A stretch of 48,396 bases of DNA from an uncultured Candidatus Bathyarchaeia archaeon (GCA_964587975.1 CAZPND010000001.1:1-48396); one strand, 5' to 3'; positions 19,912-46,060 are shown, numbered from the stretch's first letter. Made by a program: numbers and translations. Notes: generated by a model not told the origin, from the sequence alone.

Positions 19912-19920
19912 GATTTATCT

Positions 19921-21867
19921 TCACCCCAAAATTGTGGCTATAACTATTATAACGATTATCAGAAACCCTATAAGTGCCGCTGCTATGCTACGTTGCAACG
20001 TTTCGTCGTTTACTTTTCGAGCCTTTGCGGATTGTGCCATCGTCTTTTTCACCACGATATACAGCGTTTTGTCGATAAGTACGTCGAGATATTTGCGAGT
20101 GCCGTGAGCGAGTTTTGTTACGCCATTTGCTACGAAATAGGGCAAACGAGCAAACAAGGCTGACTCAACGTACGCGAGACCTCTGGTAACTTTTATGATT
20201 CCTCCTGCCACAACTTTTTCATAGAAATCGTCGAAGAAAAACCCGTGTTCAAAGATTGTGTTTAACGGAGCCAACTTTCTTGTAACCGTTTTCATCCGCT
20301 CAGGTCGATAATAAAGAAGGTAAATTGGCACGCCTCCGATGAGCAGGAAAAGCAGGAAAACCAGTGTTAATGGACTGAACACCTCGCTTATTCCGATTTC
20401 CACGTTGGCATGCAGGAACGCGGCGATCGAATTGGCAAGGAAACCCCAAACAAAGCAGAGAACGGCTAATATGCCTGCGGAATAAAGCATTGTCTTTGGC
20501 GGCTCATGTACATGGCTTTGCTTGATGAACTCTGATGGTTTGCGCAGGAAGACAAGTATTGTGAATCGTAGGGTGTAAGCAAAAGTGACAGCGAGAGCAG
20601 CATAAATCGTGAAGACAAGTAGTACGTCACCTGTTGACCATAGACTGTTTATGATAAGGCCTTTACTGAAAAAACTTGAAAATGGCGGAACACCAGTGCG
20701 AGCGAATAGCACAACAAGACTCAATGCAAAGGTGATTGGCATTAGTTTTCGCAGTCCACCCATCAATCGCATGTCACGAGTTCCAAGCGCGTGAATTATT
20801 CCACCGATGGCAAGGAATCCCAGGCCTTGGAAGAAAGCGTGGCTTATCAAGTGGAACAGGCTCGCGAACCAGCCTTGCGAGGACGCAGATGTGGCAGCGC
20901 CCAATGCCGCCACCATGAATCCTATTTGGCTGATGGTGGAGTAAGCTGGCACTCCTTTTATGTCGGGCGTGTGCAACGCGAGAGCTGCACCAATCAAAGC
21001 TGTGATTGCCCCAATCCAAGCCAAGGTAGGCAACCAGAAGGGAATCAGGGTTATCAGTGGTCCAACTAACGTGAAAAATCTTGCGATAAGGTAGACTCCC
21101 GCCTTCACCATGGTTGCGCCGTGCAGAAGAGCGCTAACCGAAGTAGGAGCCTCCATGGCCGTGTAAAGCCACGTGTGAAGAGGCAGCTGAGCCGATTTGG
21201 CGATTGCTCCAACAAGAATTAGGTAGGCAACGGCTGTTAGAGTTGAGGTTTGCAAGGAGCCTATGTGGTCGATAATGTATGAAAAGGAAAATGAGCCCAA
21301 GTTGATGTATAAAAGCACAATGGCTGCTAGAAAGCAAACGTCACCTACACGTGTCGTTAGGAAAACTTTGATGCCTGCCCGAACGGCTTCTGGACGTTTG
21401 TACCAAAAAGAAACCAGTGAATATGAGCAAAGACCTATTATTTCCCAGAAAATGAACATTTGAAGAAAGTTGTCAGCCATGACCAGTCCTATCATTGAGC
21501 CCATGAAAAGAAGCATGAAGAAATAATATCTGGTTAAGCCTTCTTCCCCAGCCATGTAACCCAGAGAATACACAATTACCACGAAGCTGAAGAAGGCAAT
21601 CAGACTCGCGAAAAAAATGCTGAGCGGGTCTACGCGTACTCCTAAATTGATGCCTAGCCAAGGAATCCATGACACGCTTGACTCCGGGCTGCTTACCGTG
21701 TTAAAGTAGATGTCTGGAATCATAGACAGGGCGAGCACTGTAGTGACTAAGCTGACTGCCACTACAAAGTAATTTCTCGCCTTTCCGCCTAAGCGCTGGG
21801 TGAGTGGAACAAAGAGGCTTGAAACAATCGGGGTTATCCATACAAGCCACGGCGCGTACGGCAGCAA
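19921..21867 (-). CDS. NuoL / MnhA-type antiporter-like subunit with C-terminal lateral-helix extension
   Basis: 648 aa. WLYTAMEAPTSVSALLHGATMVKAGVY, AYSTISQIGFM. Long amphipathic C-terminal segment followed by a final TM. TTG start. 9 nt upstream of the NuoM-like gene. Confidence 0.85.
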   Translation of the reverse strand: MLPYAPWLVWITPIVSSLFVPLTQRLGGKARNYFVVAVSLVTTVLALSMIPDIYFNTVSSPESSVSWIPWLGINLGVRVDPLSIFFASLIAFFSFVVIVYSLGYMAGEEGLTRYYFFMLLFMGSMIGLVMADNFLQMFIFWEIIGLCSYSLVSFWYKRPEAVRAGIKVFLTTRVGDVCFLAAIVLLYINLGSFSFSYIIDHIGSLQTSTLTAVAYLILVGAIAKSAQLPLHTWLYTAMEAPTSVSALLHGATMVKAGVYLIARFFTLVGPLITLIPFWLPTLAWIGAITALIGAALALHTPDIKGVPAYSTISQIGFMVAALGAATSASSQGWFASLFHLISHAFFQGLGFLAIGGIIHALGTRDMRLMGGLRKLMPITFALSLVVLFARTGVPPFSSFFSKGLIINSLWSTGDVLLVFTIYAALAVTFAYTLRFTILVFLRKPSEFIKQSHVHEPPKTMLYSAGILAVLCFVWGFLANSIAAFLHANVEIGISEVFSPLTLVFLLFLLIGGVPIYLLYYRPERMKTVTRKLAPLNTIFEHGFFFDDFYEKVVAGGIIKVTRGLAYVESALFARLPYFVANGVTKLAHGTRKYLDVLIDKTLYIVVKKTMAQSAKARKVNDETLQRSIAAALIGFLIIVIIVIATILG

Positions 21868-22277
21868 CTAGCCGTCATCCCGATTTGTTTCGCCATTCGT
21901 TTTTTTCTTTATTTGTTGCGCTCTTCAATCACCTGTCTCTTTAGAGAGACGTCTATACCTTCACTTAAGGGCTTTCTCGCTCCTTATAACCCGCTTATCT
22001 TGTCAATAATGTCTTTTAAATTTACTGTTCACCCTGAAGAAAAAGGGATTGAGAATAACAAACATGTTGTACCGCCCACTTCAAAGAAAACCAAAAAATT
22101 CTTCGGGGGCAAATACCATCCTTCAAAAATATCTTAAATAAGACTTGAATCGTGCTGCAACAACCAGCACAAACGAAACAAACAAATTTTGCAAAAACAC
22201 TTAGCAACCCCAAAACAAATCCCGCGAAGTAGAAGTGCTAAGAAAACCTCCACAACTAAACAAAAAACATCAATACC

Positions 22278-22303
22278 AAAAGCTGGGGATGGGAATTGAA
22301 CCC
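22278..22303. repeat. attL: orphan copy of the tRNA-Cys 3' end (26-nt direct repeat)
   Basis: aaaagctggggatgggaattgaaccc is identical to 34498-34523. Confidence 0.8.
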
Positions 22304-22444
22304 TCAAAAATTGGATACTTTTTAGCTCGGGTTGAGCCTCCAATTTGTGGCGATGTATCATCGCAGAAGAGTTTCTTCGCAGCTTTTTCCCCTTTTTTTC
22401 TTTTTTCCAACCCTTTGTTTCCCAAGCGAGGCTGATTACAAAGC

Positions 22445-22987
22445 TTGAGCGAGAGAGTGTCTGTTCCTGTTACTCAGCCCAAAAACTTGATTTGTAATTT
22501 TCGTGCTCCTAATCTGGAGCAGTACCAGCGTTGGAAGGCTTATGTTCAATGGGCTAAAGACAACGGCATGGATGTTTGCCACTTAACGCTTAGTTTGACT
22601 GATTCGTTCATGAGGGGCATTGAAGGCGCCGCTCAAGTGCGTAATGGGAATCAAGTTGTAAATATCCAACAGAACAACATTTTCCAGTATCAAGTTTCCA
22701 AACCTCGTCGAGAACCTTACGACTTGAGTTGTGTAAGAAGAGAGTTTCAGAAAACAATTAGCAGTGGTCTTTTTGAAGCCTATGTTCTTAACAAGGCGAG
22801 AGATTTAACGCGGGAATTTAGTTATCGAGACTTTTTAGAGTTAAAACATGACGCTTTTCGCAGAATCATATTGCGTTTGAGGCGTAAGGGCAAAATTGTG
22901 GCTAATCCTCAGCGCACCGTGCCCAGATTTTACTTTTTGGCTGAACGAATCAGCGAATACGCCTGTGATGGGAGAACAACACAGTAA
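22445..22987 (+). CDS. hypothetical protein, possible RHH-like N-terminus and wHTH-like C-terminus
   Basis: 180 aa, first gene inside attL. NLICNFRAPNLEQYQRWKAYVQWAKDNG fits a beta-strand plus helices. The basic C-terminus is AFRRIILRLRRKGKIV. TTG start. Function unknown. Confidence 0.45.
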   Translation: MSERVSVPVTQPKNLICNFRAPNLEQYQRWKAYVQWAKDNGMDVCHLTLSLTDSFMRGIEGAAQVRNGNQVVNIQQNNIFQYQVSKPRREPYDLSCVRREFQKTISSGLFEAYVLNKARDLTREFSYRDFLELKHDAFRRIILRLRRKGKIVANPQRTVPRFYFLAERISEYACDGRTTQ

Positions 22988-23164
22988 AACAATTGTTTAC
23001 AAAATATGACGATGAAAAGGGATAAGTTGGTTCCATAAGGTTGAAAATATGCATAGATTTTTTGATTATATGAGACGGAAAATACGGTTTATGGTGGACC
23101 CCTTGTCCAAGCTTAAAGGTGCTTACTAGGCTTTTCAGTCCCGCTATTAGCGCTCGCTCGCTGG

Positions 23165-23188
23165 CTTACTAACTAACTTACTAACTAA
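23165..23188 (+). promoter_or_regulatory. perfect tandem 12-nt repeat (cttactaactaa x2) upstream of abiEi, candidate operator
   Basis: Seen directly. It is followed by the palindrome aaaaattttt and a T/A-rich TATA-like tract (about 23198-23208). Confidence 0.35.
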
Positions 23189-23213
23189 TTGCAAAAATTT
23201 TTATTTTTGTAGT

Positions 23214-24047
23214 TTGTTAGTAAATAGCGTGAAATGGACAAGCTCGACATTAGACCTTCTTAAGGTCGCGTTTGGAAAGGAGCCTTTTTCTTTGAAACAA
23301 GCAGCTGTTGCCCTAAAGAAGGAAATGGGATATTCGTATAACGCAGCGCGTCAAGTTCTTCATGAACTCGTTAAAGCGGGTTCCTTAACCAAGTTGGGTC
23401 GCGGTCTATACAGAGTAGCTGAAAAGAAAGCAGTTCAAACAGAGGCACTTACGATCTCAGATAAACTCGTTGTTACGTTAACTTCTGGTTTTCTGATTCG
23501 GGCAGAGGAGGTTTTGAAAGAGAAAGGCGTTGAATTCATGGTTACGGGACCTTCAGCGTTGTCGCAGTTCGTTCATCTTTTGCCGAGAAGGCTCATACAT
23601 CTCATTTATGTTGTCGATGGGGCAGGCGAGTTTGCCACTGCAATTCTCAGAGAAGAGAACTTTCGGGTTTTCTTGAATCCTAAAGGGAACGAAGTTGAGA
23701 TGGCGCTTCAAGCTTTTGAAGACAGAGACATTTTTGTTATTCGGGAGTATGCAAAATTGGAGGGCAACGTTGAGGGAAGAGCCGTTCTAGAAAGGGCTCT
23801 TGTTGATACGTATTTTGAGGCAACGCGGCGGCGGATTCCGTTTTCAGAGGTGGAGGTAGGGCGAATCATGGCGAATGTGTTTAGGACGGAGAAGATTGAC
23901 ATTGCGAGGTTGTTGAGTCTTGCAGGGCGTCGAGGGGTGAAGGGTGAAATGCAATCGATTGTTAAGGCATTGATTCCTGATGTTCCTTTGTCTGCTGGCG
24001 TGACAAACGAAAAGGTTGAGCAGGTTCTTAAGGGAATTAGAGCGTGA
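23214..24047 (+). CDS. abiEi: AbiEi-family antitoxin / transcriptional regulator (type IV TA)
   Basis: N-terminal wHTH FSLKQAAVALKKEMGYSYNAARQVLHELVKAGSLTKLGRGLYRV is the typical AbiEi N-domain pattern. Its stop is 4 nt before the AbiEii start. An alternative, possibly leaderless, GTG start lies at 23229. Confidence 0.7.
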   Translation: MLVNSVKWTSSTLDLLKVAFGKEPFSLKQAAVALKKEMGYSYNAARQVLHELVKAGSLTKLGRGLYRVAEKKAVQTEALTISDKLVVTLTSGFLIRAEEVLKEKGVEFMVTGPSALSQFVHLLPRRLIHLIYVVDGAGEFATAILREENFRVFLNPKGNEVEMALQAFEDRDIFVIREYAKLEGNVEGRAVLERALVDTYFEATRRRIPFSEVEVGRIMANVFRTEKIDIARLLSLAGRRGVKGEMQSIVKALIPDVPLSAGVTNEKVEQVLKGIRA

Positions 24048-24051
24048 AAGA

Positions 24052-25206
24052 ATGGCGTTTATTCATGATGAGGCTTACTTCTCGGAGCGTAGTATTCGTG
24101 AAAGGGCTAACCGATACGGTTTTTCGGACCCATTGGCAGTAGAGATGTTTCTGTGGGACTGTGAAATCGCTGCCCAATTACAGAGTGAATCTGAAAAGTT
24201 CGTTTTGAAGGGCGGAGCTGCCGTGCAGTTTCACTTGCCAGTCGAGATGCAGAGAGGAAGTGTAGACGTAGACATTATTTGCCCCTACACAAAAAAGGAG
24301 ATAGCTGAAGCTTTATCTCGTATTCATAAACGGATTCCAACAGTGGAATTCGAGAAATACACGCCCAAGCGCCCGAAGAAAGAGATTAACATGGTGACAT
24401 ATCTTGCTAGAATGCCCGCGGTGCTTCCTTCAGAGAGCGGGAGACCCCGTGAGGTTAAAATTGATTTATTGCTTGAAGACCTCACGTTGCCCACTCAGAT
24501 CGTTACGGATGCGGAAACTTTCGCTGTGAAAGTCAAGAGGCTCAGGTGTTACTCGGCTATTTCGCTTATTGGAGATAAGCTTCTGACGCTGGCTGAGAAC
24601 ACCATAGGTATAACGGACTCAGCGGATATTCCAAAGCAAATTTATGATGTGGCCGTTCTAAGCGAAAGGCACAACCCAACGCCTGAGCAGTTTCCAGAGA
24701 TCGTCAAAATTATAGAAGCGGTGGCGCAACTTGAAATTGGATACAGAAGTTTAAAGATGACTGTGGTTGATGTACTTGCTGATGTCGAACGGACAATGGA
24801 AAAATATGGGCTTTTAGACACAGCAGGCGCGGATCCTGAGGTCAAAAGGAACATCACTAGTTTCCAGCAATTTTACGTTAGTGCATCTCAGAAGCGCCCT
24901 TTGTACGAATGGTGCGCGCGAGCGTTGAGAATTCGATTTCTTTCTGAACTACTTAGAGCTATTATTGAGGGCAAAGCCACTGCCGAAGAGGCTGGCAACG
25001 AGTATGGTTTAGCCGTTAAAATAACGCAATGGTTGAAAGTTCTTAGTGGCGAAAGAATCAAGGAGGTAAACAAGCAACTTATGGCCTCTGCGGATCAACA
25101 AATACCTCATTTTAAGAATCTTAAAGGCAAGCCTTTGCATCGCGTATTCTGGCAAGTAGTCAGTCGAAACAACTTGACCAAAATCCATGATTTGGTTAAA
25201 ACTTAA
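24052..25206 (+). CDS. abiEii: AbiEii/AbiGii-family nucleotidyltransferase toxin
   Basis: NTase signature FVLKGGAAVQFHLPVEMQRGSVDVDIICP (GG-x15-DxD). Genetic pairing with AbiEi. Start moved to ATG 24052. Confidence 0.75.
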   Translation: MAFIHDEAYFSERSIRERANRYGFSDPLAVEMFLWDCEIAAQLQSESEKFVLKGGAAVQFHLPVEMQRGSVDVDIICPYTKKEIAEALSRIHKRIPTVEFEKYTPKRPKKEINMVTYLARMPAVLPSESGRPREVKIDLLLEDLTLPTQIVTDAETFAVKVKRLRCYSAISLIGDKLLTLAENTIGITDSADIPKQIYDVAVLSERHNPTPEQFPEIVKIIEAVAQLEIGYRSLKMTVVDVLADVERTMEKYGLLDTAGADPEVKRNITSFQQFYVSASQKRPLYEWCARALRIRFLSELLRAIIEGKATAEEAGNEYGLAVKITQWLKVLSGERIKEVNKQLMASADQQIPHFKNLKGKPLHRVFWQVVSRNNLTKIHDLVKT

Positions 25207-25257
25207 GTGATCAAGCATTTCAGGGTCAGGCAGAAAGGTGTGTAGGGCTGTAGCACT

Positions 25258-25334
25258 CCTTAGCATGTAATGCTGAGGCAGAAAACAGATTAGAAGTAGT
25301 AGTCTAGCCAAAATCACAGCGGACTACTACTTCT
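25258..25334. other. two consecutive stable hairpins in the 363-nt spacer (terminator or structured RNA)
   Basis: Hairpin 1: ccttagcat/gta/atgctgagg (9 bp with one G-U, 25258-25278). Hairpin 2: agaagtagtagtc / 17-nt loop / gactactacttct (13 perfect bp, 25292-25334). Confidence 0.4.
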
Positions 25335-25569
25335 CGGCATGCAGGAACACTCCAACTTTACAAATGAAAAGGTTCGAAAGACAGGAAAATTATTTTTTCT
25401 CGCATTCAACCTATCAGTTTCCGATTGGCAGTTAATGGTTGGTGTGCGATTTGTTGTTTGTTGTTTTTTTGTTTTTGGGGCAATTCCTTTAAGCTGAGAT
25501 GGACTCTACATAACTACAATTTCATGGTTAGTTCCGGGTTAGGCATTTGGTTGATGGGGGTGCGGTTGG

Positions 25570-28500
25570 TTGATTGATGAAGATTTTGATTCGGTATTTG
25601 CTGGTGGAGATGAGGGTTCTGGTGGTTTACCTGTGTTGTCTGCGTCGGGGATTGCGGAGTATATCCGTTTTAATTGTTGTCCGCGGTTCTTTAAGTTGAA
25701 GTTTGGGGCTGTTGAGATACGGAATCGCAAGTGGATTGAGGCTTTTACGCCAATTAGCCCTCTGCTTTATGGTGCGGGGAAGGCTCTTGAGGAGAATAAA
25801 ATTTCCGAGTTGAAAGAGAAAGCAGCCAGATATTTTGACCTTAGTGATAACGATCCGCGAATTGTGGGGTGGGAAACTGCTTGGAAAAGTTCTCTGAGTA
25901 CCTTGCGCGAGGTGATTGAGAATAAGTTTTCTGATGAGGCGGGGGTTGGTTGTAAGCCTGTTTTGATTTATCAGGTTCCTATGAAAGGTCATATCGGTGT
26001 TTGGGATGTGAGAGGGGTTGCTGATTTGATTGGTGTTTGGCCTTCCGAGGATGGTAAGGTGAAGGTGAGGATTTTTGAGCTTAAGGCGTCTTGGAAAGAG
26101 CAAACCGCTCATCGCATACAGGTTGCGATTTATGTGTTGTTGCTTTCTCAAGAATTAGGAGATCTCTTTTCTAGGGTTGAGTTTGAGGGCGGAGTGATAA
26201 ACAAGGAGACTGATTTAGAGAATCTTGATCCTGATTGTCTTCCCCAGTTCAAGCTTGGTCCTCTTGTCATGGATGTGGAACGTCTGCTATCTGCTGATGG
26301 TGAGTTGCATAGGATTCATCAGACGCCTTTGCCGAAGGTTGAGTATCAGCTTTGTTGGAGGTGCGACAATTGTGGGTTTAATGAGTGCTGTGTTGTCAGT
26401 GCTGTTGAGAGCGAGAGTGTGGCGTTGCTTAATTTGACTAGGGGTGAGCAGAACGTGCTTCGCGGTTATGGTATTGAAAAGCTTGAGGACCTGGCTAGGT
26501 TGAAAGTTTTGCCGGATGCGGACAGGTTACGTCCTTATGATTTCAAGGGGCTTGCTGCGAGGGATGTTGAAAAGGTGAGTTTGTTGTCCACAGATCCTGT
26601 TGTTGGCGCTAGGCTGGATTGGCTTGTTCAGCGTGCGCAGTTCATGTTAGGTGGGATTCGACCTGGCAGCCCTTTTGCTAGTAGGAGTAGGCGCATGCCT
26701 TGGTTGACTGGAACGGGTTACGGTAGTCTTCCTGAGGATAGCGCGTTTGCTGGGGCGGATTCGGCGCTTTTGTTTAACACTGATGGCATGATTCGGGTCT
26801 ATCTCTTTGTTGAATGGGACTATATGCTAGATGTTATTTCGATGATTAGTGCTAGGGTGAGTTGCACAAGATATAGGGGGCAGTCTTTGGATGTGTCGCG
26901 AGTTATCGGGAGCCTTCCTGATGGGCGTGAGGACTGCTTGGATGAAGAAAAGAAGCTTTTGGAAAACTTTTTCCTTGAGGTTACCCAAGCGATAAGCAAG
27001 ATAGCTGCTGAGGTGGGGAGTCCCGATGAGGCTCCGATTCATCTTTATTTTTTTAGTCAGCGGGAACGGGATGTGTTGATGGATGCTGTTCGTCGTCAAC
27101 CTTCGTTGATGAGTGCTCGCGCTGTTCGTGACCTGCTTGGTCTAAGACAGGCTATTGATCAGCCGATGTTTTCGATTGTTCAAGATGAGGTTGTGCATAG
27201 AAAAGCTCTGAGGTTTCACAGTTCGGGTCTTTTGCCTATTCTTGATCAATCTGGTTTTTTTGACAATAAAGAATGGATGGTGAAGCGACGCGATGGTTCT
27301 TTGGTTGATTTGCGTTTTGTTTTTCGTGACGGATTTTTTAATTATGTTCTTCCTTATCGTAGGAATTCTGAGGGGGCAATTTCTTTTATTCTTGGGTTCG
27401 ATAGAGTCGGTCGTAAAGAGGGATATTATCCTGCTCGTGCTCGTTTTGGGGATCAAATTCCGATTGAATATGTGTGGGCTGCGAAGGGGCGATTGGATAA
27501 TCGTGAAGAGAAGGGCTTGGCTAAGATTTTTTTGGAGAAGCGAATGTGGTGTGATTATCCTCAGAAAACTAGAAGGATTACTGATGAAGAGCTTGCTCTT
27601 ATGGGTTTGAAGCTTTGTTTGGCTCTTGAGCACATTGAACGGTCGTTGTCGATTCGTAACAGGAGATTAGGTAAGAAGCCTATTGCTGTTCCTAAGATTT
27701 CGGAGTTTTCGTTGGGTCCTGTTACGTTGGAGCGAAGTTGTAGAGAGTTTTTGGATTTAGAGTATTTTGCGAAGCGCCAAGAGATGTATCAGCATTATGC
27801 TATGCTTCCGTATCAGCGGGTTGATTCGGGTAGATCGTTGATTTTTGAGTGTACAGGTGTGGAGGAGACGGAGAGGGGGTTTGTGGTTCAGGGCAGGCTC
27901 GTCTATGAGGGCCTCGGTGTTCCTAAGGCTGATTGTATCGCTAATGCTTGCAGGGTTAAGGGTTCAGAAGGCTCCAGCTCGGGCGATTGGATGGTTGTGA
28001 CTGAGCTAAGGCGTAACGAGGAAGGCCATTTTGAGGAGGTGCAGGGGCGTTCGCCTTCTGAGGTTGAAAGATCAGCTCGTGCTATTGTTGATAAGGTTAA
28101 TTCTCGCAAGCTAGAGCTTACCCTTAAAGTGGTTAACTGGCCAAGTGGCAGAAAACGGAAGTACAGTGCCTGGCATAATCTTCCTACTATTGATCCGGAG
28201 AAGGCGAAGAGCAAGTATATGCAGCTTTTTGAAGTTGGGCGATGGTACATTTTGGATGAGTTGGCTGATGACATCATTTCTGACAGGGCTGCAAAGTGCC
28301 TAGACTACGCTAGCAGTAATGTGCTTTATTGTCTGTTGGAGACCTTCTTAGCTGGCAAATCAATGGCTTCACGTGTAGCTTTACCTCAGGCTGCTGCTAC
28401 TTCCTTCTTGAAATGGGTTGAAGGCAGTAGTCTTCCTCCTAATGAGGAGCAAAAGCGCTTTGTTGATCGTGTTTTTGGGGAGGAGGCGATTGTTATGCTT

Positions 28501-29916
28501 CAGGGTCCTCCGGGAACTGGGAAAACTGAGACGTTGCAGTTAGCAGTCTTGGCTCATGTTGCGGCGCATAAGGCTGGTTCAAGGTGCAGGGTGTTGATGG
28601 TCGCGCCCACTCATAAGGCGATTCATGAGTTTGTGAGCAAGCTAGCTGGTTGTTGGCGGGATTACTGTGGTGGCGGCGGTAAGGATCTTGAGGATTTGAG
28701 GATTTACCGGGTTTTGAGTAGTGATGTTTCTTCGGTTAAACCGTTGGAGGGTGTTAAGTACGTTAATTATCATGAGGATTTGGAGGCGGTTGGTGAGCTT
28801 AGTGGTTGTTTGATGGGGCAGTCGACGTTGGTTTCTGTTGGTTCAGGTTTTCCTTTGGTTTTGTGTGCTACTCCTCCTGGTTTGTATGGTCTTATGAAGA
28901 AGATTGGTGGGTCTGAGCCGCCTTGGGGTGAGGGTTTTTTTGATTTGCTTGTTGTTGATGAGGCTAGTATGATGCGTTTGCCTGAGTTGATTCTTTCAGG
29001 TTCTTTTTTGTGTAAGAGTAGCCAGATTCTTGTGGCGGGGGATCATCGTCAGTTGCCTCCGATTCAGGCTCATAATTGGGAGAAGGAGGATCGGCGGACT
29101 TTGGAGGAGTTGGCTTCTTTCTTGTCGGCTATGGATTTTCTGCGTTTGCTGCGCATGGAGGATTTGGGGATTGACAGGATTAAGCGTGCTCAAGGAGCAG
29201 ATATTCCTACTGAGCGTTTGTGTGAGAGTCACAGGTGTCATACTGTTGTTGCGGAGTTTTTGAAAGAGTGGGTGTATGAGAAGGATAAAATTGATTTTCG
29301 TTCTGAGAGGCGGGAGACGTTGGATGTTTCTGAGCCTAATACGGATGGGTTGCGTGTTGCTCTTGAGCCGGGCAACGTGTTTGTTTTGATTGTTCATGAT
29401 GAGGCTGAGAGTTTTCAGTCGAATTTGGTTGAGGCATCGATCGTGGAGGTTTTGGTTCGTAATGTTCGGTCTAATAATGTGGGTGTGATTACGCCGCATA
29501 ATGCGCAAAAGGGCTTGCTGAAAAATATGCTGTCTGAGGGGTGCGAAAACGTGAGAGTTGACACGGTTGAGAAGTATCAGGGTGGGTCGGCGGATTTCGT
29601 TATTATTTCTTCTACGGTGAGTGACCCTGACTATGTTCGGTGCGAGAGTGATTTTCTGCTTAATTTGAACAGAATAAACGTGGCTATTTCCCGTATGAAA
29701 AAGAAGCTGGTTGTTGTTGCGAGTAAGTCGATTTTTGATTTCATGCCTCAGGATGCTAAGGACTATGATAAGGCTTTGTTGTGGCGCGGGATTTCTCATG
29801 CTGTTGGATTTACAGCTAAGTCAAAGCCGCGGTGGATGGGCACTCTGTCTGAGTTTCTTGGACAACAGGCTTCACCAATTAAGATTGAAGTTTACGTCAA
29901 GAGTGAGAAAGATTAA
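25570..29916 (+). CDS. 1448-aa fusion: Cas4/RecB-like PD-(D/E)XK nuclease (Cys cluster) + RNase-H-like middle domain + SF1B (Upf1/Dna2-like) helicase
   Basis: N-terminus: SASGIAEYIRFNCCPRFF, ADL...IFELK (ELK at 26077-26085), HRIQVAIY, CWRCDNCGFNECC (26353-26391). Middle: VYLFVEWDY, EEKKLLENFF, PIHLYFFSQRERDVL. Helicase: GPPGTGKT (28504-28527), VVDEASM, AGDHRQLPPI, ITPHNAQ, VEKYQGGSADFVIIS, NVAISRMKKKL. TTG start. Confidence 0.85.
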   Translation: MIDEDFDSVFAGGDEGSGGLPVLSASGIAEYIRFNCCPRFFKLKFGAVEIRNRKWIEAFTPISPLLYGAGKALEENKISELKEKAARYFDLSDNDPRIVGWETAWKSSLSTLREVIENKFSDEAGVGCKPVLIYQVPMKGHIGVWDVRGVADLIGVWPSEDGKVKVRIFELKASWKEQTAHRIQVAIYVLLLSQELGDLFSRVEFEGGVINKETDLENLDPDCLPQFKLGPLVMDVERLLSADGELHRIHQTPLPKVEYQLCWRCDNCGFNECCVVSAVESESVALLNLTRGEQNVLRGYGIEKLEDLARLKVLPDADRLRPYDFKGLAARDVEKVSLLSTDPVVGARLDWLVQRAQFMLGGIRPGSPFASRSRRMPWLTGTGYGSLPEDSAFAGADSALLFNTDGMIRVYLFVEWDYMLDVISMISARVSCTRYRGQSLDVSRVIGSLPDGREDCLDEEKKLLENFFLEVTQAISKIAAEVGSPDEAPIHLYFFSQRERDVLMDAVRRQPSLMSARAVRDLLGLRQAIDQPMFSIVQDEVVHRKALRFHSSGLLPILDQSGFFDNKEWMVKRRDGSLVDLRFVFRDGFFNYVLPYRRNSEGAISFILGFDRVGRKEGYYPARARFGDQIPIEYVWAAKGRLDNREEKGLAKIFLEKRMWCDYPQKTRRITDEELALMGLKLCLALEHIERSLSIRNRRLGKKPIAVPKISEFSLGPVTLERSCREFLDLEYFAKRQEMYQHYAMLPYQRVDSGRSLIFECTGVEETERGFVVQGRLVYEGLGVPKADCIANACRVKGSEGSSSGDWMVVTELRRNEEGHFEEVQGRSPSEVERSARAIVDKVNSRKLELTLKVVNWPSGRKRKYSAWHNLPTIDPEKAKSKYMQLFEVGRWYILDELADDIISDRAAKCLDYASSNVLYCLLETFLAGKSMASRVALPQAAATSFLKWVEGSSLPPNEEQKRFVDRVFGEEAIVMLQGPPGTGKTETLQLAVLAHVAAHKAGSRCRVLMVAPTHKAIHEFVSKLAGCWRDYCGGGGKDLEDLRIYRVLSSDVSSVKPLEGVKYVNYHEDLEAVGELSGCLMGQSTLVSVGSGFPLVLCATPPGLYGLMKKIGGSEPPWGEGFFDLLVVDEASMMRLPELILSGSFLCKSSQILVAGDHRQLPPIQAHNWEKEDRRTLEELASFLSAMDFLRLLRMEDLGIDRIKRAQGADIPTERLCESHRCHTVVAEFLKEWVYEKDKIDFRSERRETLDVSEPNTDGLRVALEPGNVFVLIVHDEAESFQSNLVEASIVEVLVRNVRSNNVGVITPHNAQKGLLKNMLSEGCENVRVDTVEKYQGGSADFVIISSTVSDPDYVRCESDFLLNLNRINVAISRMKKKLVVVASKSIFDFMPQDAKDYDKALLWRGISHAVGFTAKSKPRWMGTLSEFLGQQASPIKIEVYVKSEKD

Positions 29917-30068
29917 AAACAGCTTAACATTTTCAGGTGACATTTTCCATAATGCCAAGTCTCTTTTTAAGTACATTCTTTACCATCAAAATGAGAACGT
30001 CTATCAAGCAGCGACTTTTGATTTATTTTATTATATGTCGGTAAGTTTTGTCTTTTTTAGGTTCTTAG

Positions 30069-30755
30069 CTATTCTTCTAATAATCCCAATTTCTTGAGTC
30101 TTGATACTATAGCGCCTATTCCTCTCTGATGCTTAAATGCTAGCTGACGAGCGCTTGCTCCACCCTTGAATCCATTCACGAGATCTTCAATCTCGGCTGA
30201 TGTCCAAGGTTCATATGCTCGAGGCAAGGTTTTCCGAATTTCTTCAATGTTGTAAGGAAGATAGGGGCCACGAATTCGTTTTGTAATCGCTGTATCATCG
30301 CCGACAGGGTTGAAATTTGCTTTTCCAGTAATGAATGATACATATACTATGAACTTTTCTTCTGCCTCAAGATTCTTCAGTTTCTCCAAAGCGCTTTTAC
30401 TGGTAATGAAATTTAATTCGCTTGTTTTGGCGCGTACTTCAAACGCAGCAACAATCTTTTCGTCCGACATCCAAACTACATCTACAAAACTTGACTTCTC
30501 GGGATAGTTGATTTTCGGGTTTTCATAATCGAGCACAACTTTGTAACCGTTGTCGCTGCCGAGTTTACGTAATCTCAGTTTGGCTCTTTTTGCGAGTGGG
30601 GCGGGGTTCTCAATAGTTCCGAATGATTTGGATAATTCAGTTGGGTCTAATTTCGGCGAAGGTAGAGTTGTTGCCTCTTTCTCTAATTGAAAAGCGCAAT
30701 TTGGGCAAAATTTAAAGCTTTCTTGAGTATTGGTGTGACAATTGGGGCACTCCAA
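30069..30755 (-). CDS. Zn-ribbon + possible PD-(D/E)XK-like core + C-terminal HTH protein
   Basis: MECPNCHTNTQESFKFCPNCAF (two CxxC pairs). FVDVVWMSDEKIVAAFEVRAK (D...E-x-R/K pattern). C-terminus RAYEPWTSAEIEDLVNGFKGGASARQLAFKHQRGIGAIVSRLKKLGLL is a Myb/sigma-r4-like HTH. TTG start preceded by GGAGAG. Confidence 0.55.
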   Translation of the reverse strand: MECPNCHTNTQESFKFCPNCAFQLEKEATTLPSPKLDPTELSKSFGTIENPAPLAKRAKLRLRKLGSDNGYKVVLDYENPKINYPEKSSFVDVVWMSDEKIVAAFEVRAKTSELNFITSKSALEKLKNLEAEEKFIVYVSFITGKANFNPVGDDTAITKRIRGPYLPYNIEEIRKTLPRAYEPWTSAEIEDLVNGFKGGASARQLAFKHQRGIGAIVSRLKKLGLLEE

Positions 30756-30775
30756 AAATCGCCACTCTCCGAGTT

Positions 30776-30997
30776 CTATTCTGATGGTTTTTCGCGGTCG
30801 GGGAGTTGGCTATAGTTGCCTTCAAGTGAGCGGTAAACCGCTAATTTTGCATCTGTTACCCAATTATCGTTGACTAGTCGGGTGATTTGCACGGAGATTA
30901 CTTCTGCTAAGGGGTCGTTTCGTGTTGCAAATACTGCGAGGGAGAGGTTGCTTCCGTCGGGGAGGGGTATGCGAAAAGACTGTTTTGGTCTTCCCAT
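30776..30997 (-). CDS. 73-aa hypothetical protein, upstream partner of 30069-30755
   Basis: ATG start. Its stop is 20 nt before the SD and TTG of the next gene. Beta-rich sequence, no recognised motif. Confidence 0.45.
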   Translation of the reverse strand: MGRPKQSFRIPLPDGSNLSLAVFATRNDPLAEVISVQITRLVNDNWVTDAKLAVYRSLEGNYSQLPDREKPSE

Positions 30998-31185
30998 TTT
31001 TTATCGTTTCGATATGTATTTTTGCTGGGCTGTTTAAGTTTTATGTATTTTAAGTATCAAAAAGAATTTAATGTCTCGGATATTGCATTTGCACTTATGA
31101 TTGGTGTTTAACGAGTTTTATATACGCATGGAAATATAGACGTGGCTATGTCAATTCCCATCTCCTCGTCGCTTCATCTGTTTCC

Positions 31186-32457
31186 ATGAAGACACAAAAA
31201 GCTGGAATGCTAAAAATGTGCTTGGAGAAACTTGGATTGAAGCGAAATTCAACTGAAAAGGGAAACCTATCCGAACTGGAGCAGGATTTACGGAAATTAG
31301 AGACATGCTACAGAAAGCTCAGAATATCAAGGATCCTCAGAATTCTGCTTATTGGTTTTCTGTGGGAGAAAGATGTTGAAAAGCGAATAAAAGAGCTGAC
31401 TGAGAAGATTCAGAATCGAATTAGCGGCAATTTTTGTGAAATCAGCAAAATCGTTGGGGAAATAGAAAGAAGCGGCACCTATCTTATCTACCCTGCAAAG
31501 GCGAATTATATTTCTATGATAGAACGAGCTGAGGCTGATGTAGCTGCGTTTGAAAGAAACCAGATTTTTAAACCTGATTTCTTTGGCAACATGAAAAGAA
31601 AGCTTAACGACATCAAAATGTTTGTAATTAACTATAATGACGAGTTTGTGAATCAGAGGAAAAATGAGTATAGGCATCTATGGTCGAAAGGCTCGATTTC
31701 TCTGGACGATGAGCAACAAACGGCTATTGTTACGGATGACAAGCACAATCTTGTGGTTGCAGCCGCAGGCTCGGGCAAAACTGAAGTGCTCATAACCAGA
31801 ATTGCCTACTTGATAAAGCGGAAACCCGATGGTGTGGAGCCTAATCGGACTCTGGCAATAGCATATCAGAGAAAGGCAAAGGAACAAATCGAACAGCGCC
31901 TAAAGGACCGATACGGAATTGAAGACGTGTGGGTCAGAACGTTTCACAAACTTGGGAAAGACATTCTTGAACGTTCCGGCAGAATAATAGAGAGAACAGA
32001 CATTGTTGATGAAAACAAAAAGTTTGGTTTTGTAAAGAGTTTTTTTGAGGAAGAGTTAGTCACTAATCGAGATTTTTATCGGTTGTTTATTCGTTACATA
32101 AAAACTGTTCGTGACGGTGATGATGAGCCGAATGATGCAGATAAGAGAGAGGTTGCTGCTCACGCCAGAGAACGTAGTTACATTTCAATTAATGGTACGA
32201 AGGTAAATAGCAAGGCTGAAAAAGAAATTATGGATTGCCTGCTGACTCATAAAATCAATGGAAAGCCCATTTTTGTTGATTACGAACCGGACATTGGCGG
32301 TTTCAGACCTGACTTTTGTCTTCCCCAATTTGACATTTTTATTGAGCATTGGGGCCTTCGCAAAGATGGTCAAGTGCCAGGATGGTTCAGTCAATCTACC
32401 GACTCATTCTGGAAAGTCAATACAAGAATCTCAGCCAACTCGTCAGAACAGCCATAA
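31186..32457 (+). pseudogene. 3'-truncated helicase IV / UvrD-like gene (motifs I-Ia and the embedded nuclease-like insert only)
   Basis: DDEQQTAIVTDDKHNLVVAAAGSGKTEVLITRIAYL, TLAIAYQRKAKEQIEQRL, VRTFHKLG. Then the insert pattern KAEKEIMDCLLTHKING...FRPDFCLPQFDIFIEHWGLRKDG. No DExx or later helicase motifs. The last ~22 codons are an RHH gene read out of frame. Confidence 0.7.
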
Positions 32458-32489
32458 CTGAACTTCTCAAAAAACACGAGGAGAACTAA
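32382..32489 (+). pseudogene. ribbon-helix-helix (CopG/Arc-like) gene fragment, N-terminal strand missing
   Basis: Frame 0 gives MVQSIYRLILESQYKNLSQLVRTAITELLKKHEEN. NLSQLVRTAITELL is a typical RHH helix 2. It overlaps the end of the truncated helicase ORF, and its stop is 4 nt before the next gene. Confidence 0.35.
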
Positions 32490-32493
32490 AACA

Positions 32494-32874
32494 GTGCTTA
32501 ACAAGCAAGCCGATTTTCTTGTTAAGCTCCGTGACGCGGGTCAGATGATTGCCGACGCAGCAAACGAGCTCCTCGCATCTATGGCTCCACCTGAGCACGA
32601 AGTTAGAAAAGAGCACGCTGCCGTTGGCGAGATAACATTTACGATACTGAAATGGGACGCTCAAACGTGCTCCAAACTAGGCGATTTCGAGGTAGCATAC
32701 AAGTCCAGCAACATAGAAGATAAGTGGCAGCATGCATTCAACATCCTCAGAAACTCAAACGCCACCATCAAAGAACGATACTATGGAGCAGGCTACGGCT
32801 TTTCGTACTGGATTTACGCTCAAGATAAAATCTACCGACAAAAACTCAAACCAAAAGCTGACTCTGGAGGTTAA
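32494..32874 (+). CDS. hypothetical protein (126 aa)
   Basis: GTG start 4 nt after the RHH fragment stop. No motif recognised. Confidence 0.45.
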   Translation: MLNKQADFLVKLRDAGQMIADAANELLASMAPPEHEVRKEHAAVGEITFTILKWDAQTCSKLGDFEVAYKSSNIEDKWQHAFNILRNSNATIKERYYGAGYGFSYWIYAQDKIYRQKLKPKADSGG

Positions 32875-32879
32875 CTTTC

Positions 32880-33203
32880 TTGAACAAATACGCAACATGG
32901 GCGAAGCTAAATCTTGAAGGAAAACGAGCTTGGGGCACCATCTTCCCAAACGGCGTGGTCCCTGTTCAAAGCATCGCAACGCAGCACGTAAAACTGGAAG
33001 ACATAAAGGGCGTTGAGTCCGTGTTCACAGTAGACTGGAAAGAACTAACCCAAAAACAGCAACAAGCTATACTTGAAAACTTAAGCGAGCGAACAGGCTC
33101 CACGAAAGAAACGATATTGAAGGAAATTTTGAAAGTGGGTCTACCTCTTCGCCGAAGATACACAGGCGGTTGCGGCACAAGCCGAATGGAGCTTTTCACC
33201 TAA
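32880..33203 (+). CDS. hypothetical protein (107 aa)
   Basis: TTG start. Ends 14 nt before the integrase ATG. No motif recognised. Confidence 0.4.
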   Translation: MNKYATWAKLNLEGKRAWGTIFPNGVVPVQSIATQHVKLEDIKGVESVFTVDWKELTQKQQQAILENLSERTGSTKETILKEILKVGLPLRRRYTGGCGTSRMELFT

Positions 33204-33217
33204 AGAAGGCTCAGCTC

Positions 33218-34411
33218 ATGGATGACCTGCCAAAAGAAATCTCTGCTCCCATAAGCTTGTCTTGCCCGCGCTGCAGATCCAGAAGGCTTTGGCGGGCTGG
33301 CGTAAGACACTCAACTTTTGGCGATCAAATCCAACGCTGGTTCTGTCGAGACTGTCGATTTCGATTTTCTGACCCTGCAGATGTTGAGAAGGCTTGGAGC
33401 GCGATAGAACGGTTCGAAAGGCAGTCATTAAAAAGCGGAGACGACATAGTGTCTAACAGCCAAATATGCGTCACGGAGACGAAAAACTTGGCAGCGGAAC
33501 AACAGAAAACTGAAGTTCTGCGAAGAAACGACCTATCCACAGCTAAAGGAAAAATCGTCGAATACGAATTCTGGATGATGAAACAAGGATACGCAAAAAC
33601 AACAATCGAAGCACGCGGCAGAATCATGAACCGCTTGGTAAGACTCGGCGCCAACCTCTACGACCCAGAGCAAATCAAAGAAATCATCGCCAAACAACCT
33701 TGGAGTGAAGGAAGAAAAGAAGTCGTCACCGAAACCTACAGCAACTACCTCGTCATGGCAGGAGGAAAATGGAACCCGCCAAGATACCACAGAATCGAGA
33801 AAATACCCTTCATCCCCACCGAACAAGAAATCGACCAACTAATCGCCGGATGCGGAGAGAAAACCACGGCTCTGCTTCAAGCACTCAAGGAAACAGGCAT
33901 GCGAGTAGGAGAAGCCTGGAAACTTAAATGGACCGACATCGACTACGTAAACGCAACAATCAGTATAACACCAGAGAAAGGCAGCCACGCCCGCATGTTC
34001 AAAGTCAGCAATAAACTGCTCGCTATGCTCAACACCCTACCCAAAAAATCAGACAAAATATTCGGCACCTACGAACTCCGCGGATACCGAAGCTCCTTCA
34101 CCCGACAACGCAAAAGAACAGCAATCAAACTCCAGAACCCAAGAATTAACCAAATAACCTTCCACACCTTCCGCCACTGGAAAGCCACCATGGAATACCA
34201 CCGAACCAAAGACATCCTCTACGTCATGCGCCTACTCGGCCACAAGAACATCAAAAACACCCTGATCTACACGCAACTCGTAACCTTCGAGAACGATGAC
34301 TTCGTCTGCAAAGTAGCCACCAACACCAAAGAAGCCAAAGAGCTCATCGAAGCGGGATTCGACTTTGTCTGCAAAATAGAGAATGAAAGCTTGTTCAGAA
34401 AGAGGAAGTAA
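33218..34411 (+). CDS. tyrosine recombinase / integrase with N-terminal Zn-ribbon
   Basis: CPRCRSRRLW...FCRDCRFRF. Catalytic region ITFHTFRHWKATMEY...LLGHKNIKNTLIYTQL (R, HxxR, H, Y). Reads toward attR and the tRNA. Start set at ATG 33218. Confidence 0.9.
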   Translation: MDDLPKEISAPISLSCPRCRSRRLWRAGVRHSTFGDQIQRWFCRDCRFRFSDPADVEKAWSAIERFERQSLKSGDDIVSNSQICVTETKNLAAEQQKTEVLRRNDLSTAKGKIVEYEFWMMKQGYAKTTIEARGRIMNRLVRLGANLYDPEQIKEIIAKQPWSEGRKEVVTETYSNYLVMAGGKWNPPRYHRIEKIPFIPTEQEIDQLIAGCGEKTTALLQALKETGMRVGEAWKLKWTDIDYVNATISITPEKGSHARMFKVSNKLLAMLNTLPKKSDKIFGTYELRGYRSSFTRQRKRTAIKLQNPRINQITFHTFRHWKATMEYHRTKDILYVMRLLGHKNIKNTLIYTQLVTFENDDFVCKVATNTKEAKELIEAGFDFVCKIENESLFRKRK

Positions 34412-34497
34412 CCTCATGAAAAGGATAGCTAAAACCGAAAAAATCCTCAGCCTGAAAAACAGAGAAAGCATCTCCCAAAAGCTGGGGGTTTATGCCA

Positions 34498-34523
34498 AAA
34501 AGCTGGGGATGGGAATTGAACCC
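34498..34523. repeat. attR: 26-nt direct repeat overlapping the 3' end of tRNA-Cys
   Basis: Identical to 22278-22303. Confidence 0.8.
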
Positions 34524-34573
34524 ATATAGAGCAGCTCTGCAGGCTACCGCCTGAACCGTTCGGCCACCCCAGC
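34501..34573 (-). tRNA. tRNA-Cys (anticodon GCA), no encoded CCA
   Basis: Hand-folded 73-nt cloverleaf. Acceptor GCTGGGG/CCCCAGC. D stem GCC/GGC. Anticodon stem GTAGC/GCTGC with loop CTGCAGA. 5-nt variable loop. T arm ATGGG-TTCAATT-CCCAT. Discriminator U73, the Cys identity element. Confidence 0.9.
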
Positions 34574-34596
34574 AAAGTGACTCTAGGTGGGGACTG

Positions 34597-34604
34597 AAAT
34601 AAAA
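34597..34604 (-). promoter_or_regulatory. TATA-like box about 24-31 nt upstream of the tRNA-Cys 5' end
   Basis: The minus strand reads ttttattt. The spacing fits an archaeal TATA box at about -27. Confidence 0.35.
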
Positions 34605-34693
34605 GTATTGTTGGTTAATTTTGGGTCTGTAGTGTGGTTTTTGTCTATACCCCCTTTTATATAGAGTAAGTGGTGTGTGAGAAACGTTGGCAG

Positions 34694-35824
34694 TTATGTT
34701 GTGATTGTTTCGTTCCAGAAGATGAGTTGGCTGTAGCCGTAGGTGTTGTTTGGTTCTAGTCCATCATCGTATATTATGTCAAGGTTATACTCGTATTTTT
34801 CGATTAGGGTGCCTAGGTTCTGGCAGAGTTGGTCGGAAAAGTTGTCGGCTTCCCAGAAACCCCAAATCTTGTCGTCTGGTCCTCGGAAGCCGTACGCGTA
34901 GTCTTTTGGAAGAACGTATGCGACCCTGTCGCTGAGTGGAACGCTGCTTCTGGGGTTGTTTTGCACGTAATGCCAGAATACTCTTAATGCTTCCAGCTGC
35001 TCTTTTCCTAAGGTTCCGTGGGTGTAATCTTCGTTTGAGTCAAAAATTATGATGTATTTTGCTCCGTTTTCGTACGCCAACATCAGGTCCTTGAAAAGTT
35101 CTAAGCGTGGTTCGATGTACGGTGGATTGGTGTACGTCCATGTAACTATGGCTCCCCAATCTTTTCCCTGCATGGTAGCTGCACCCCTGCACAGCGCAAA
35201 ATTCAACTGCCTGCTGTAATTCCAACCCAACTGCGCGAAAACCGTGTCGTATCCACCTTTGTAGTCGAACCAATAAAGGGCGTAGTCAGAAGTGAACAAA
35301 GGATACCTTGTAGAGTTGGTATAAGACCACTTGTACCAATCCAAAACCCAATTCATTTCATCGACGAACTGGTTTGCAGCATCGGTGTAATTCTCGGCTT
35401 CCGAAACCACTCTATGTCCTTGAAAGTCCAGTTGCCAACCGCCCGCCTCATCATAAGCGTAGAATCCCAAAAATCGGTCTCCCCATTTTGCTTTCGCCTC
35501 TTCAAGCCACTCTGTTGGAGGCGCATAATGTTCCCTGTAAACCATGAAGTACATGCCTTTGTCGTAGATGTACTGGCACATCTCATCAAGTCTCGTATCG
35601 TTATGAGTTATTCCCGTGCATCCTAGAATGAAGAGATTGGTGTATGAGCTTACCTCGTCAATCGTCTGCTTGGTTTCTTCCATGTTTTCGTACGCCGCGT
35701 CAATACCAACAAACAGGTCTGATGGTTCTTTTCGTGCGACGTTATTGGCGGGAACTCCGATACGTAAGAATAACATCATTATCAGCAAAGAAACAAGCAT
35801 GACGACAGGATATATTGGTTTCAT
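34694..35824 (-). CDS. signal-anchored extracytoplasmic protein, unknown function (possibly glycan-active, weak)
   Basis: N-terminal MKPIYPVVMLVSLLIMMLFL. Aromatic-rich soluble part with alternating beta/alpha character (FLGFYAYDEAGGWQLD, GAKYIIIFDSNEDY). Confidence 0.5.
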   Translation of the reverse strand: MKPIYPVVMLVSLLIMMLFLRIGVPANNVARKEPSDLFVGIDAAYENMEETKQTIDEVSSYTNLFILGCTGITHNDTRLDEMCQYIYDKGMYFMVYREHYAPPTEWLEEAKAKWGDRFLGFYAYDEAGGWQLDFQGHRVVSEAENYTDAANQFVDEMNWVLDWYKWSYTNSTRYPLFTSDYALYWFDYKGGYDTVFAQLGWNYSRQLNFALCRGAATMQGKDWGAIVTWTYTNPPYIEPRLELFKDLMLAYENGAKYIIIFDSNEDYTHGTLGKEQLEALRVFWHYVQNNPRSSVPLSDRVAYVLPKDYAYGFRGPDDKIWGFWEADNFSDQLCQNLGTLIEKYEYNLDIIYDDGLEPNNTYGYSQLIFWNETITT

Positions 35825-36054
35825 TGCTACTGTAATCTAGCCATTATCTTCGAATTAAAAGTTACTCAAATCGGGTTCAAACGCTTAAAAAACGCCGAAA
35901 TGCTGATTGCGGCTCGCTTTTCCTTCAGCGCCCAATTGTTTTTTCTGCTTCTCTTCATGAGGGCGCACATTTTTGCCAAGACATTTTTTTTAACCATGCT
36001 CTTTTATAGCTAAGTAAGGTGCTGAATCTTCAACGTTTGCATCAGACTTTGAAG

Positions 36055-37077: not shown

Positions 37078-37256
37078 GAAGTTTCCACTCCAAAGTATTC
37101 GCAAAGAGTATTTATCGTTAACTAATCATGATCAGAATTCTGAGTAGAACTACACCTCCCCTGCCGATTTTGCTCGCCATTTTTCCCTTTTCGAAGCGAC
37201 ACCGTCAGCGGATACGTTTTTAAATGTTGAATTGGAAACCGTTTTGGTTGAAACTC

Positions 37257-46057: not shown

Positions 46058-46060
46058 AGT

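Follow-up and report, generated by a model that had tools for sequence, protein, structure and literature searches.

The 48,396-nt window analysed here is the whole of contig C1 in the 2.15-Mb, 198-contig assembly (G000) of an uncultured Candidatus Bathyarchaeia archaeon, and our results make it very probable that the window holds an element that an integrase inserted into a tRNA-Cys gene and that is now without virus and replication genes. This element, hereafter the island, spans positions 22278–34523 and carries a predicted AbiE pair and a large nuclease–helicase alongside its tyrosine recombinase. With less confidence, we also consider it probable that the island has a deletion-derivative or composite history. 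Since it has no virion, packaging or replication genes and contains a junction of two truncated genes at 32403, the best reading is that of a cryptic integrated element, probably a reduced form related to the tailed proviruses that carry the same integrase family. Genomes, contigs and loci are designated G, C and L throughout.

Integration into the 3′ end of tRNA-Cys

The island is bounded by two exact copies of a 26-nt sequence, AAAAGCTGGGGATGGGAATTGAACCC, both on the + strand, at 22278–22303 (the left attachment site, attL) and at 34498–34523 (the right attachment site, attR). The two copies are set 12,220 bp apart, which is the size of the element counting one attachment (att) copy. No further copy was found in the window at up to three mismatches, none of 100 shuffles gave even one match, and in the entire 2.15-Mb assembly the two window positions were the only ones at up to two mismatches. 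An earlier reading of this DNA from its sequence alone (the sequence-only reading) had proposed exactly this repeat and had considered that it might turn out to be dispersed and generic; the search of window and genome bears out the former and, with two genomic copies only, disposes of the latter. Local alignment of the attR region and of the whole tRNA likewise revealed no degenerate att or tRNA copies elsewhere in the window.

The right copy of the repeat forms the 3′ end of a functional tRNA. An intact tRNA-Cys(GCA) without an encoded CCA lies at 34501–34573 on the - strand (ARAGORN; Rfam RF00005, 55.7 bits) and is 99% identical to the tRNA-Cys of three congeners. The repeat consists of the last 23 nt of this tRNA plus three flanking A's, and at attL the same 23 nt stand as an orphan tRNA-Cys 3′ end, again with AAA. 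In the tRNA, the 23 nt cover the T-loop with 3 nt of the 5′ T-stem strand before it and the 3′ T-stem strand after it, and then the acceptor 3′ strand and U73. The sequence-only reading was thus right about the 23 tRNA nucleotides and the 3 flanking ones and too narrow in assigning only the 3′ half of the T-arm to the repeat, which includes 3 nt of the 5′ T-stem strand and the whole T-loop. On the element side of attR, a short sequence read at 34476–34488 (+ strand), CCAAAAGCTGGGG, repeats the core's left part in direct orientation; this second copy is positioned 20 nt before the core and is a candidate integrase-binding site.

The integrase and its family

The integrase gene (33218–34411, + strand) encodes a 397-aa tyrosine recombinase (PF00589, E 1e-19) with an N-terminal zinc ribbon of four cysteines, and its stop codon lies 86 nt from attR. 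The start at 33218 agrees with independent gene calls, and the exact 397-aa product is called in five metagenome contigs. Alignment to two structures of archaeal XerA, 5hxy and 4a8e, shows that every catalytic residue (R, K, HxxR, H and Y) is conserved, at GMRVGE, KGSHAR, HTFRH, LGH and IYT. The Pfam match, the XerA alignment and the 86-nt spacing bear out the earlier claim of a tyrosine recombinase gene just inside the tRNA-proximal end. Unlike in the SSV1 type, the open reading frame (ORF) is whole in the integrated state, and relatives match over residues 1–413 or 25–413. The N-terminal ribbon has weak matches to InsA, IS1595 and DUF7838-type ribbons.

A set of archaeal and bacterial genomes with one genome per species contains 327 relatives of this integrase, almost all in Bathyarchaeia. 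In 59 of the best 80 loci a tRNA gene begins 26–164 nt past the integrase stop codon, nearly always in convergent orientation. Among the 20 loci with at least 59% integrase identity, 16 sit at tRNA-Cys(GCA), 28–164 nt before the convergent tRNA; of the other four, two have a flank too short for the target to be seen, and the remaining two are the inner copy in a tandem array and a locus with a tRNA-Cys about 6 kb off. More distant relatives lie at tRNA-Ala, Leu, Arg, Pro, Ile, His or Ser. From the tRNA positions at these 80 loci it follows that this is a tRNA-targeting integrase family whose targets are clade-specific, and that the clade of the window's enzyme targets tRNA-Cys.

The genome itself is rich in such genes. 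At least nine more full or partial integrase paralogues of 30–57% identity are found in the same 2.1-Mb genome (on contigs C7, C10, C26, C57, C78, C94, C119, C136 and C146 of G000), which suggests many integrated elements; att repeats were sought around them, but the contigs are short and gave no useful information.

The distal att arms of related elements share a further feature, in that the tRNA 3′ copy is followed by 6–9 nt and then a short palindrome, for example GGAGATATCTCC or GTCGATATCGCC. The palindrome occupies the place of the anticodon arm, giving the att site a tRNA-like extension. Such arms occur at L023:8815-8860, L023:9577-9620, L024:9316-9360, L032:5630-5674 and L036:5169-5215, and also in metagenome loci, among them L139–L141, L149, L153–L155, L168 and L180. 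A similar palindrome, GCGATGTATCATCGC, lies in the window about 55 nt inside attL.

Comparison with relatives

In five congeners (G002, G005, G007, G009 and G010) the left neighbour of tRNA-Cys is a homologue of the window genes at 15721–18294, which encode a PAS histidine kinase and a 214-aa protein. The gap from this neighbour to tRNA-Cys is 354 bp in G010 (measured from the homologue of window gene 17650–18294), 2.9 kb in G009, 6.4–7.6 kb in G005, G007 and G002, and 16.2 kb in the window. Outside the integrase module, no homologues of island proteins were found at the tRNA-Cys loci of 12 relatives. The 118 nt directly left of attL (22160–22277) are homologous to DNA that abuts the intact tRNA-Cys in G002; together with the core, window 22160–22306 aligns to G002 at 72% identity over 167 columns (E 5e-20). 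We read this alignment as an empty-site signature at the genus level, and it is at that level, in the G002 flank and the 354-bp gap of G010, that an unoccupied site is present in relatives.

The sequence-only reading had proposed an attL/attR arrangement of an integration that regenerates the tRNA, and the repeat, the intact tRNA, the integrase and the comparison with G002 and G010 agree with it. It had also considered that relatives might share the same gene order without repeats; none of the relatives searched has this gene order, and the nuclease–helicase of the island was found in one of 60 relatives, at 67% identity, at another locus and among unrelated neighbours. The empty site that it had predicted, in which the NuoL-like gene would abut tRNA-Cys, does not occur among the relatives searched; the reason is that the nuoL/nuoM pair left of attL is an incomplete additional copy and not conserved.

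The integration module and its left edge

The integrase belongs to a 2.1-kb module made up of a gene for a 50-aa ribbon-helix-helix (RHH)-like protein, a 126-aa gene, a 107-aa gene and the integrase gene. Six loci share 92–96% nucleotide identity with the window from exactly position 32403 through the integrase into the tRNA: the metagenome contigs L151, L163, L167, L172 and L193, and L037, a contig of a metagenome-assembled genome (MAG). The DNA upstream of the module in these six loci is unrelated to the cargo of the window. The intact 50-aa ORF stands directly before the 126-aa gene in L163, L037 and L193, and alignment to these three loci identifies window 32403–32489 (+ strand) as the 3′ half of this gene. 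We propose the 50-aa product as a candidate ribbon-helix-helix protein on the basis of its sequence pattern; it has no Pfam match.

The conserved 126-aa protein (32494–32874, + strand) has homologues in nine integrase loci, including the regions in G012 and G065 described below, and the conserved 107-aa protein (32880–33203, + strand) has homologues in L037, L040, L112, L163 and others. When the island ORFs were compared with Pfam, NCBIfam, PADLOC and PHROG models, neither protein had a match in any of these collections, and their AF2 models (pLDDT 79 for the 126-aa and 68 for the 107-aa protein) gave no PDB match at E <= 0.001.

To the left of 32403 lies the other partner of the junction, a UvrD/helicase-IV-like ORF of 423 aa (31186–32457, + strand; PF00580) that retains the N-terminal part only. 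It matches profile positions 1–181 of 271, has no C-terminal helicase domain and reads with its last 55 nt into the RHH remnant. Two truncated genes are thus fused precisely where the conserved module begins on its left, and 32403 is a deletion or illegitimate-recombination junction.

The module seems to travel. Over 4.2 kb of element, L163 and L167 agree at 99.8% identity, and their tRNA-Cys bodies differ at several positions beyond the core; metagenome contigs join one and the same 40-nt element arm to no fewer than three tRNA-Cys alleles. Across hosts the module is conserved at 95–99.8% identity beside other cargo. A near-identical module at different tRNA-Cys alleles argues that the module has recently entered different host species. 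The MAG contig L037 (G020:C90, 2547 bp), whose integrase is 96% identical and which also has this module and tRNA-Cys, was binned into a MAG of another genus and reflects either a very recent inter-genus transfer or a mis-binned contig.

Relationship to tailed viruses

Two regions at tRNA-Cys tie the integration module to virus genes. In G012 an integrase of 69% amino-acid identity and a homologue of the 126-aa protein lie at tRNA-Cys inside a provirus-like, 35.6-kb segment (G012:C38:139935-175674, L030–L032). It has a degenerate tRNA 3′-end copy as its boundary and contains genes for a large terminase, an HK97-type capsid protein, and cement and minor-capsid proteins. A defence block with GmrSD, an Eco57I/MmeI-type enzyme and SNF2 and PLD domains stands between its integration module and its morphogenesis genes. 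In G065 (G065:C3:295263-350009, L134–L136) an intact tRNA-Cys is followed by att copies 42 kb and then 12.5 kb further on, with two homologous integrases, and the first segment carries terminase, capsid and tail-tube genes together with a thermosome subunit, HerA/NurA and other cell-type genes. The large gene adjoining the integrase in the G012 region (899 aa) and in the G065 region (595 aa) has no usable family match. Att-bounded regions with capsid and terminase genes and homologous integrases measure about 35–42 kb, and IMG/VR viral contigs of 39–44 kb end in integrases of 42–51% identity.

Tailed proviruses of Bathyarchaeia that are bounded by an integrase, a tRNA and a direct repeat have already been published (PMC11705971, PMC11697101). 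The sequence-only reading had judged the island not to be a recognisable provirus, which holds for this copy, since it has no virion genes; through its integrase family, the island is nevertheless probably related to proviruses.

Origin of the island

Altogether, these observations lead us to favor a scenario in which the tyrosine recombinase would have inserted the 12,220-bp element into the 3′ part of the chromosomal tRNA-Cys(GCA). The identity block extends from the T-stem to 3 nt beyond the end of the tRNA, and the crossover was probably in the T-loop. The element's own copy of the last 23 nt would have regenerated the tRNA at attR, now without an encoded CCA, and the displaced original 3′ end would have stayed behind as attL. 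At 32403, a larger provirus-type element would have lost its middle, or two tandem elements would have fused, and what remains may serve the host mainly as a small defence island with its AbiEi/AbiEii pair and nuclease–helicase. The repeat, the tRNA, the integrase and its catalytic residues, the insertion seen against congeners, the sharing of the module with other cargo and the junction at 32403 are shown by the data; the position of the crossover, the provirus ancestry, the defence function of the AbiE and nuclease–helicase cargo and any remaining capacity to excise are inferred.

Several observations weigh against this account. In the genus, tRNA-Cys genes that are unoccupied have an encoded CCA (TGG before AGCT on the + strand); attR and attL both read AAA at that place, and some 13 nt of the G002 flank have no counterpart at attL. 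A simple one-step attB × attP model therefore requires that the site had already been altered, for instance by a previous element, or that the event was imprecise and not fully conservative. Regions to the left of attL and to the right of the tRNA are rearranged relative to kin, and as a result no relative gives a clean before/after pair. None of 45 JGI metagenome contigs with the 26-mer contains a same-strain empty site or the attP junction (34497 joined to 22304) that the sequence-only reading had proposed as a sign of an excised circle, assembled contigs being a weak test for such a junction; current mobility is therefore unproven. The shared integrase module is the single strand of evidence that connects the island to proviruses, and L193, the closest relative with an intact RHH gene, has no virus genes in the 5.2 kb available next to its tRNA, on ENA ERZ27275805 contig k141_2642270.

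That nothing was inserted, the gene order being ancestral and the 26-nt repeat a chance or dispersed one, we regard as next to impossible. In its favor, a same-species empty site was not recovered. Against it stand a repeat found in just two places in 2.15 Mb with none expected by chance, the identity of that repeat with the exact 3′ end of a tRNA beside an integrase whose relatives use the same tRNA in dozens of genomes, and congeners that are without the island, among them G002, in which sequence homologous to the attL flank directly adjoins the tRNA. An intact, autonomous small integrative element that is still mobile, whether plasmid-like and cryptic or a satellite of tailed viruses, deserves more attention, unlikely though we think it. 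The repeats are perfect, the integrase is intact with all its catalytic residues, the near-identical module with varied cargo and varied host tRNA-Cys alleles attests to recent mobility of the family, the stretch of L193 noted above is free of virus genes, and archaeal cryptic integrated elements of such size are common (PMC6563490). What makes this reading less likely is that the RHH gene is halved and fused to a truncated helicase gene and that no replication gene was detected, nor any partition, packaging or transfer gene; in addition, no metagenome contig has a circular junction, and all contigs with the exact integrase are integrated at the same site.

The junction at 32403 could also mark a composite, in which two tandem tRNA-Cys elements were fused by a deletion that took out the older element's integrase, the middle att copy and the distal portion of the newer one. 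Under this history the older element would have supplied attL together with the defence cargo, and the newer one the half-RHH gene, the 126-aa and 107-aa genes, the integrase and attR. Tandem tRNA-Cys arrays do occur, as in G065:C3 with its three att copies and two integrases; degenerate extra tRNA fragments are present in G005, G007 and G002; both genes at 32403 are truncated; and none of the module-carrying relatives has anything that corresponds to the cargo left of 32403. However, no remnant of a middle att and no second integrase is left in the island, and one internal deletion in a single element explains the junction equally well; we consider this specific history unlikely. Less plausible by far, at the level of a long shot, is that the island is an active minimal defence element that uses the RHH-126-107-integrase module of tailed viruses and is mobilised by those viruses. 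If true, it would be an archaeal counterpart of phage-inducible chromosomal islands and satellites, spreading AbiE and the nuclease–helicase between species via tRNA-Cys. We thus favor the insertion by the integrase of an element that has since been cut down or fused.

Cargo genes

The best-defined cargo is a pair of adjacent genes resembling AbiE. An AbiEi-like antitoxin or transcriptional regulator is encoded at 23229–24047 (+ strand) and matches PF13338 (AbiEi_4; 29.6 bits, cut-off 25), DUF6577 and the PADLOC AbiEi model (E 3e-15); a 272-aa gene is called for it on an independent contig. It is followed at 24052–25206 (+ strand) by an AbiEii-like nucleotidyltransferase toxin, called as a 384-aa gene, with matches to PF08843 (E 2e-16; 61.2 bits, cut-off 22.5) and PADLOC AbiEii (E 2e-26). 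Next comes a 1448-aa fusion (25570–29916, + strand) of a PD-(D/E)XK nuclease and an SF1 helicase of the Upf1-like AAA_11/AAA_12 type, in which Pfam places PDDEXK_1 at residues 77–274, AAA_11 at 958–1055 and AAA_12 at 1212–1386. Its helicase part matches MkoA, DpdJ and PLuB-type models, and we consider the protein a candidate single-gene defence protein. These Pfam and PADLOC matches support the earlier assignment of AbiE and a giant nuclease–helicase.

Three smaller ORFs complete the cargo. At the attL-proximal end a 180-aa ORF (22445–22987, + strand) has no match in any of the four model collections and no homologue at related loci except in the identical contig L152. A 228-aa protein (30069–30755, - strand) has an N-terminal zinc ribbon, with weak, below-cut-off matches to Zn_Ribbon_1 and DZR, and a C-terminal region like a winged helix-turn-helix (wHTH), where residues 170–227 have PHROG matches including 'transcriptional regulator, D5-like'. 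It is followed by a 73-aa ORF (30776–30997, - strand). A segment of about 296 bp that contains this ORF (window 30775–31069) is 80% identical to G000:C7:30724-31018, and contig C7 also holds a paralogous integrase adjoining tRNA-Arg(TCG); the likeness looks like small-gene sharing between islands of one genome.

Among the island ORFs, Pfam, PADLOC and PHROG searches found no capsid, terminase, portal, tail, Rep, primase or conjugation families and no MCM, S3H, partition, packaging or transfer genes, five ORFs being without any match. For capsid, terminase, Rep and primase this agrees with what had been seen from the sequence alone. The same searches do find capsid and terminase families in the G012 and G065 regions. 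The only helicases of the island are the truncated UvrD-like gene and the SF1 nuclease–helicase.

Copies in metagenomes

Contigs with the exact integrase or the exact right-flank protein were found in four JGI samples and three Logan runs. The strain occurs in JGI samples 3300031653, 3300032062, 3300031379 and 3300031364 and in SRA runs SRR9709000, SRR8556600, SRR8556772 and SRR9694931. These look-ups of the integrase and the right-flank gene returned integrated copies only and, where the flanks are long enough, the contigs show the integrated arrangement of the window at 99.7–100% identity. Exact-protein look-ups of the NuoL-like and NuoM-like flank genes gave no match. Logan contigs that end at 30785 and 34530 might have been taken for cargo variants or for excision; we rejected both as artefacts of the k-mer graph, the 31-mer at 30784 being shared with contig C7 of G000 and 34530 being the last 30-mer that lies wholly inside the conserved tRNA.

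Relation to known systems

Cryptic integrated elements (CIE) of archaea were defined for Thaumarchaeota by Krupovic et al. in 2019 as elements with an integrase and att sites and with no hallmark genes of viruses, conjugative elements, casposons or insertion sequences (PMC6563490). The island fits this class: it has an integrase and att repeats, is integrated in a tRNA 3′ end, measures less than 20 kb, is without virus, plasmid or conjugation hallmarks and carries predicted defence cargo at a site that is re-used in tandem arrays. It differs from the thaumarchaeal elements in its bathyarchaeial host, in a module that is tied to tailed-virus regions and in its visible deletion junction. The virus link of the module and the junction make its origin less cryptic than that of most CIE.

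The head-tailed proviruses of Bathyarchaeia (the BATPV series, PMC11705971, and the 46.8-kb Bathy-6 provirus, PMC11697101) share with the island the host class and the boundaries formed by integrase, tRNA and repeat. They measure about 35–47 kb, whereas the island measures 12.2 kb and has no capsid, terminase, portal or tail gene. Homology to virus-gene regions was shown with the tRNA-Cys regions of G012 and G065, through the integrase and the 126-aa gene.

Archaeal integrases fall into Type II ('pNOB8-type') enzymes and self-splitting enzymes of the SSV1 type. Set against the description of Type II, the island integrase is similar, with a whole gene and an attP outside the ORF, 86 nt after the stop codon; it differs from Type II integrases in its N-terminal four-cysteine zinc ribbon. 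The adjacent genes for an AbiEi-like wHTH protein and an AbiEii nucleotidyltransferase resemble, as predicted from sequence, the AbiE type IV toxin–antitoxin or abortive infection system. Unlike the usual AbiE, the pair is in an archaeal host, and its AbiEi also matches DUF6577.

A tRNA-targeted tyrosine-recombinase island with AbiE-type cargo is well-known biology and will not surprise specialists. Bathyarchaeia are abundant, uncultivated sediment archaea that have no genetic system, and this locus offers a cleanly delimited example of how accessory defence genes may travel among them. It also presents tRNA-Cys as a hotspot to which the module brings interchangeable cargo, with tandem arrays and virus-gene regions at this tRNA in relatives. 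Both the integrase and its 26-nt site are known precisely enough for work in vitro, and they might in future provide an integration tool for Bathyarchaeia.

The region around tRNA-Cys

Directly left of attL, window 18433–21867 encodes a NuoL-like (648 aa) and a NuoM-like (492 aa) protein. The pair has its best match, at 68–73%, in G044, a genome of another family, and reaches only about 60% in congeners. The genome's own full nuo copy, on contig C20, is equal to those of congeners at about 60% identity to the window pair, and elsewhere nuoL and nuoM are part of an L-M-N triple. The pair looks like a partial, horizontally acquired duplicate in a variable zone beside tRNA-Cys. Extending the island leftward to take in nuoL/nuoM was considered and rejected, there being no older att copy near 18.3 kb.

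To the right of the tRNA, window 34694–35824 (- strand) encodes a 376-aa protein with an N-terminal hydrophobic anchor, which belongs to a large paralogous family found only in Bathyarchaeota. In this genome the family is represented by 13 matches and in relatives by as many as 10, with identities of 34–79%. Searches of Pfam, NCBIfam, PHROG and PADLOC gave no match for the 376-aa protein, and the protein atlas offered only a weak glycosyl-hydrolase-like lead. A transposase was considered for this multicopy gene and rejected; the copies are 34–51% identical, and the family's proteins are membrane-anchored or secreted.

The wider gene order around tRNA-Cys has also changed. Across the family a DNA-ligase block lies within 1–3 kb of the 5′ side of tRNA-Cys; in the window it is found at 1272–8026, which places it 26 kb leftward of the tRNA, and the tRNA is followed by different genes (34574–48396). 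The backbone genes that congeners have between the kinase gene and the tRNA are missing here, and the orthologue of one of them, a 240-aa protein, is on contig C129. The displaced ligase block and the missing backbone genes indicate a rearrangement with the tRNA-Cys hotspot as its breakpoint.

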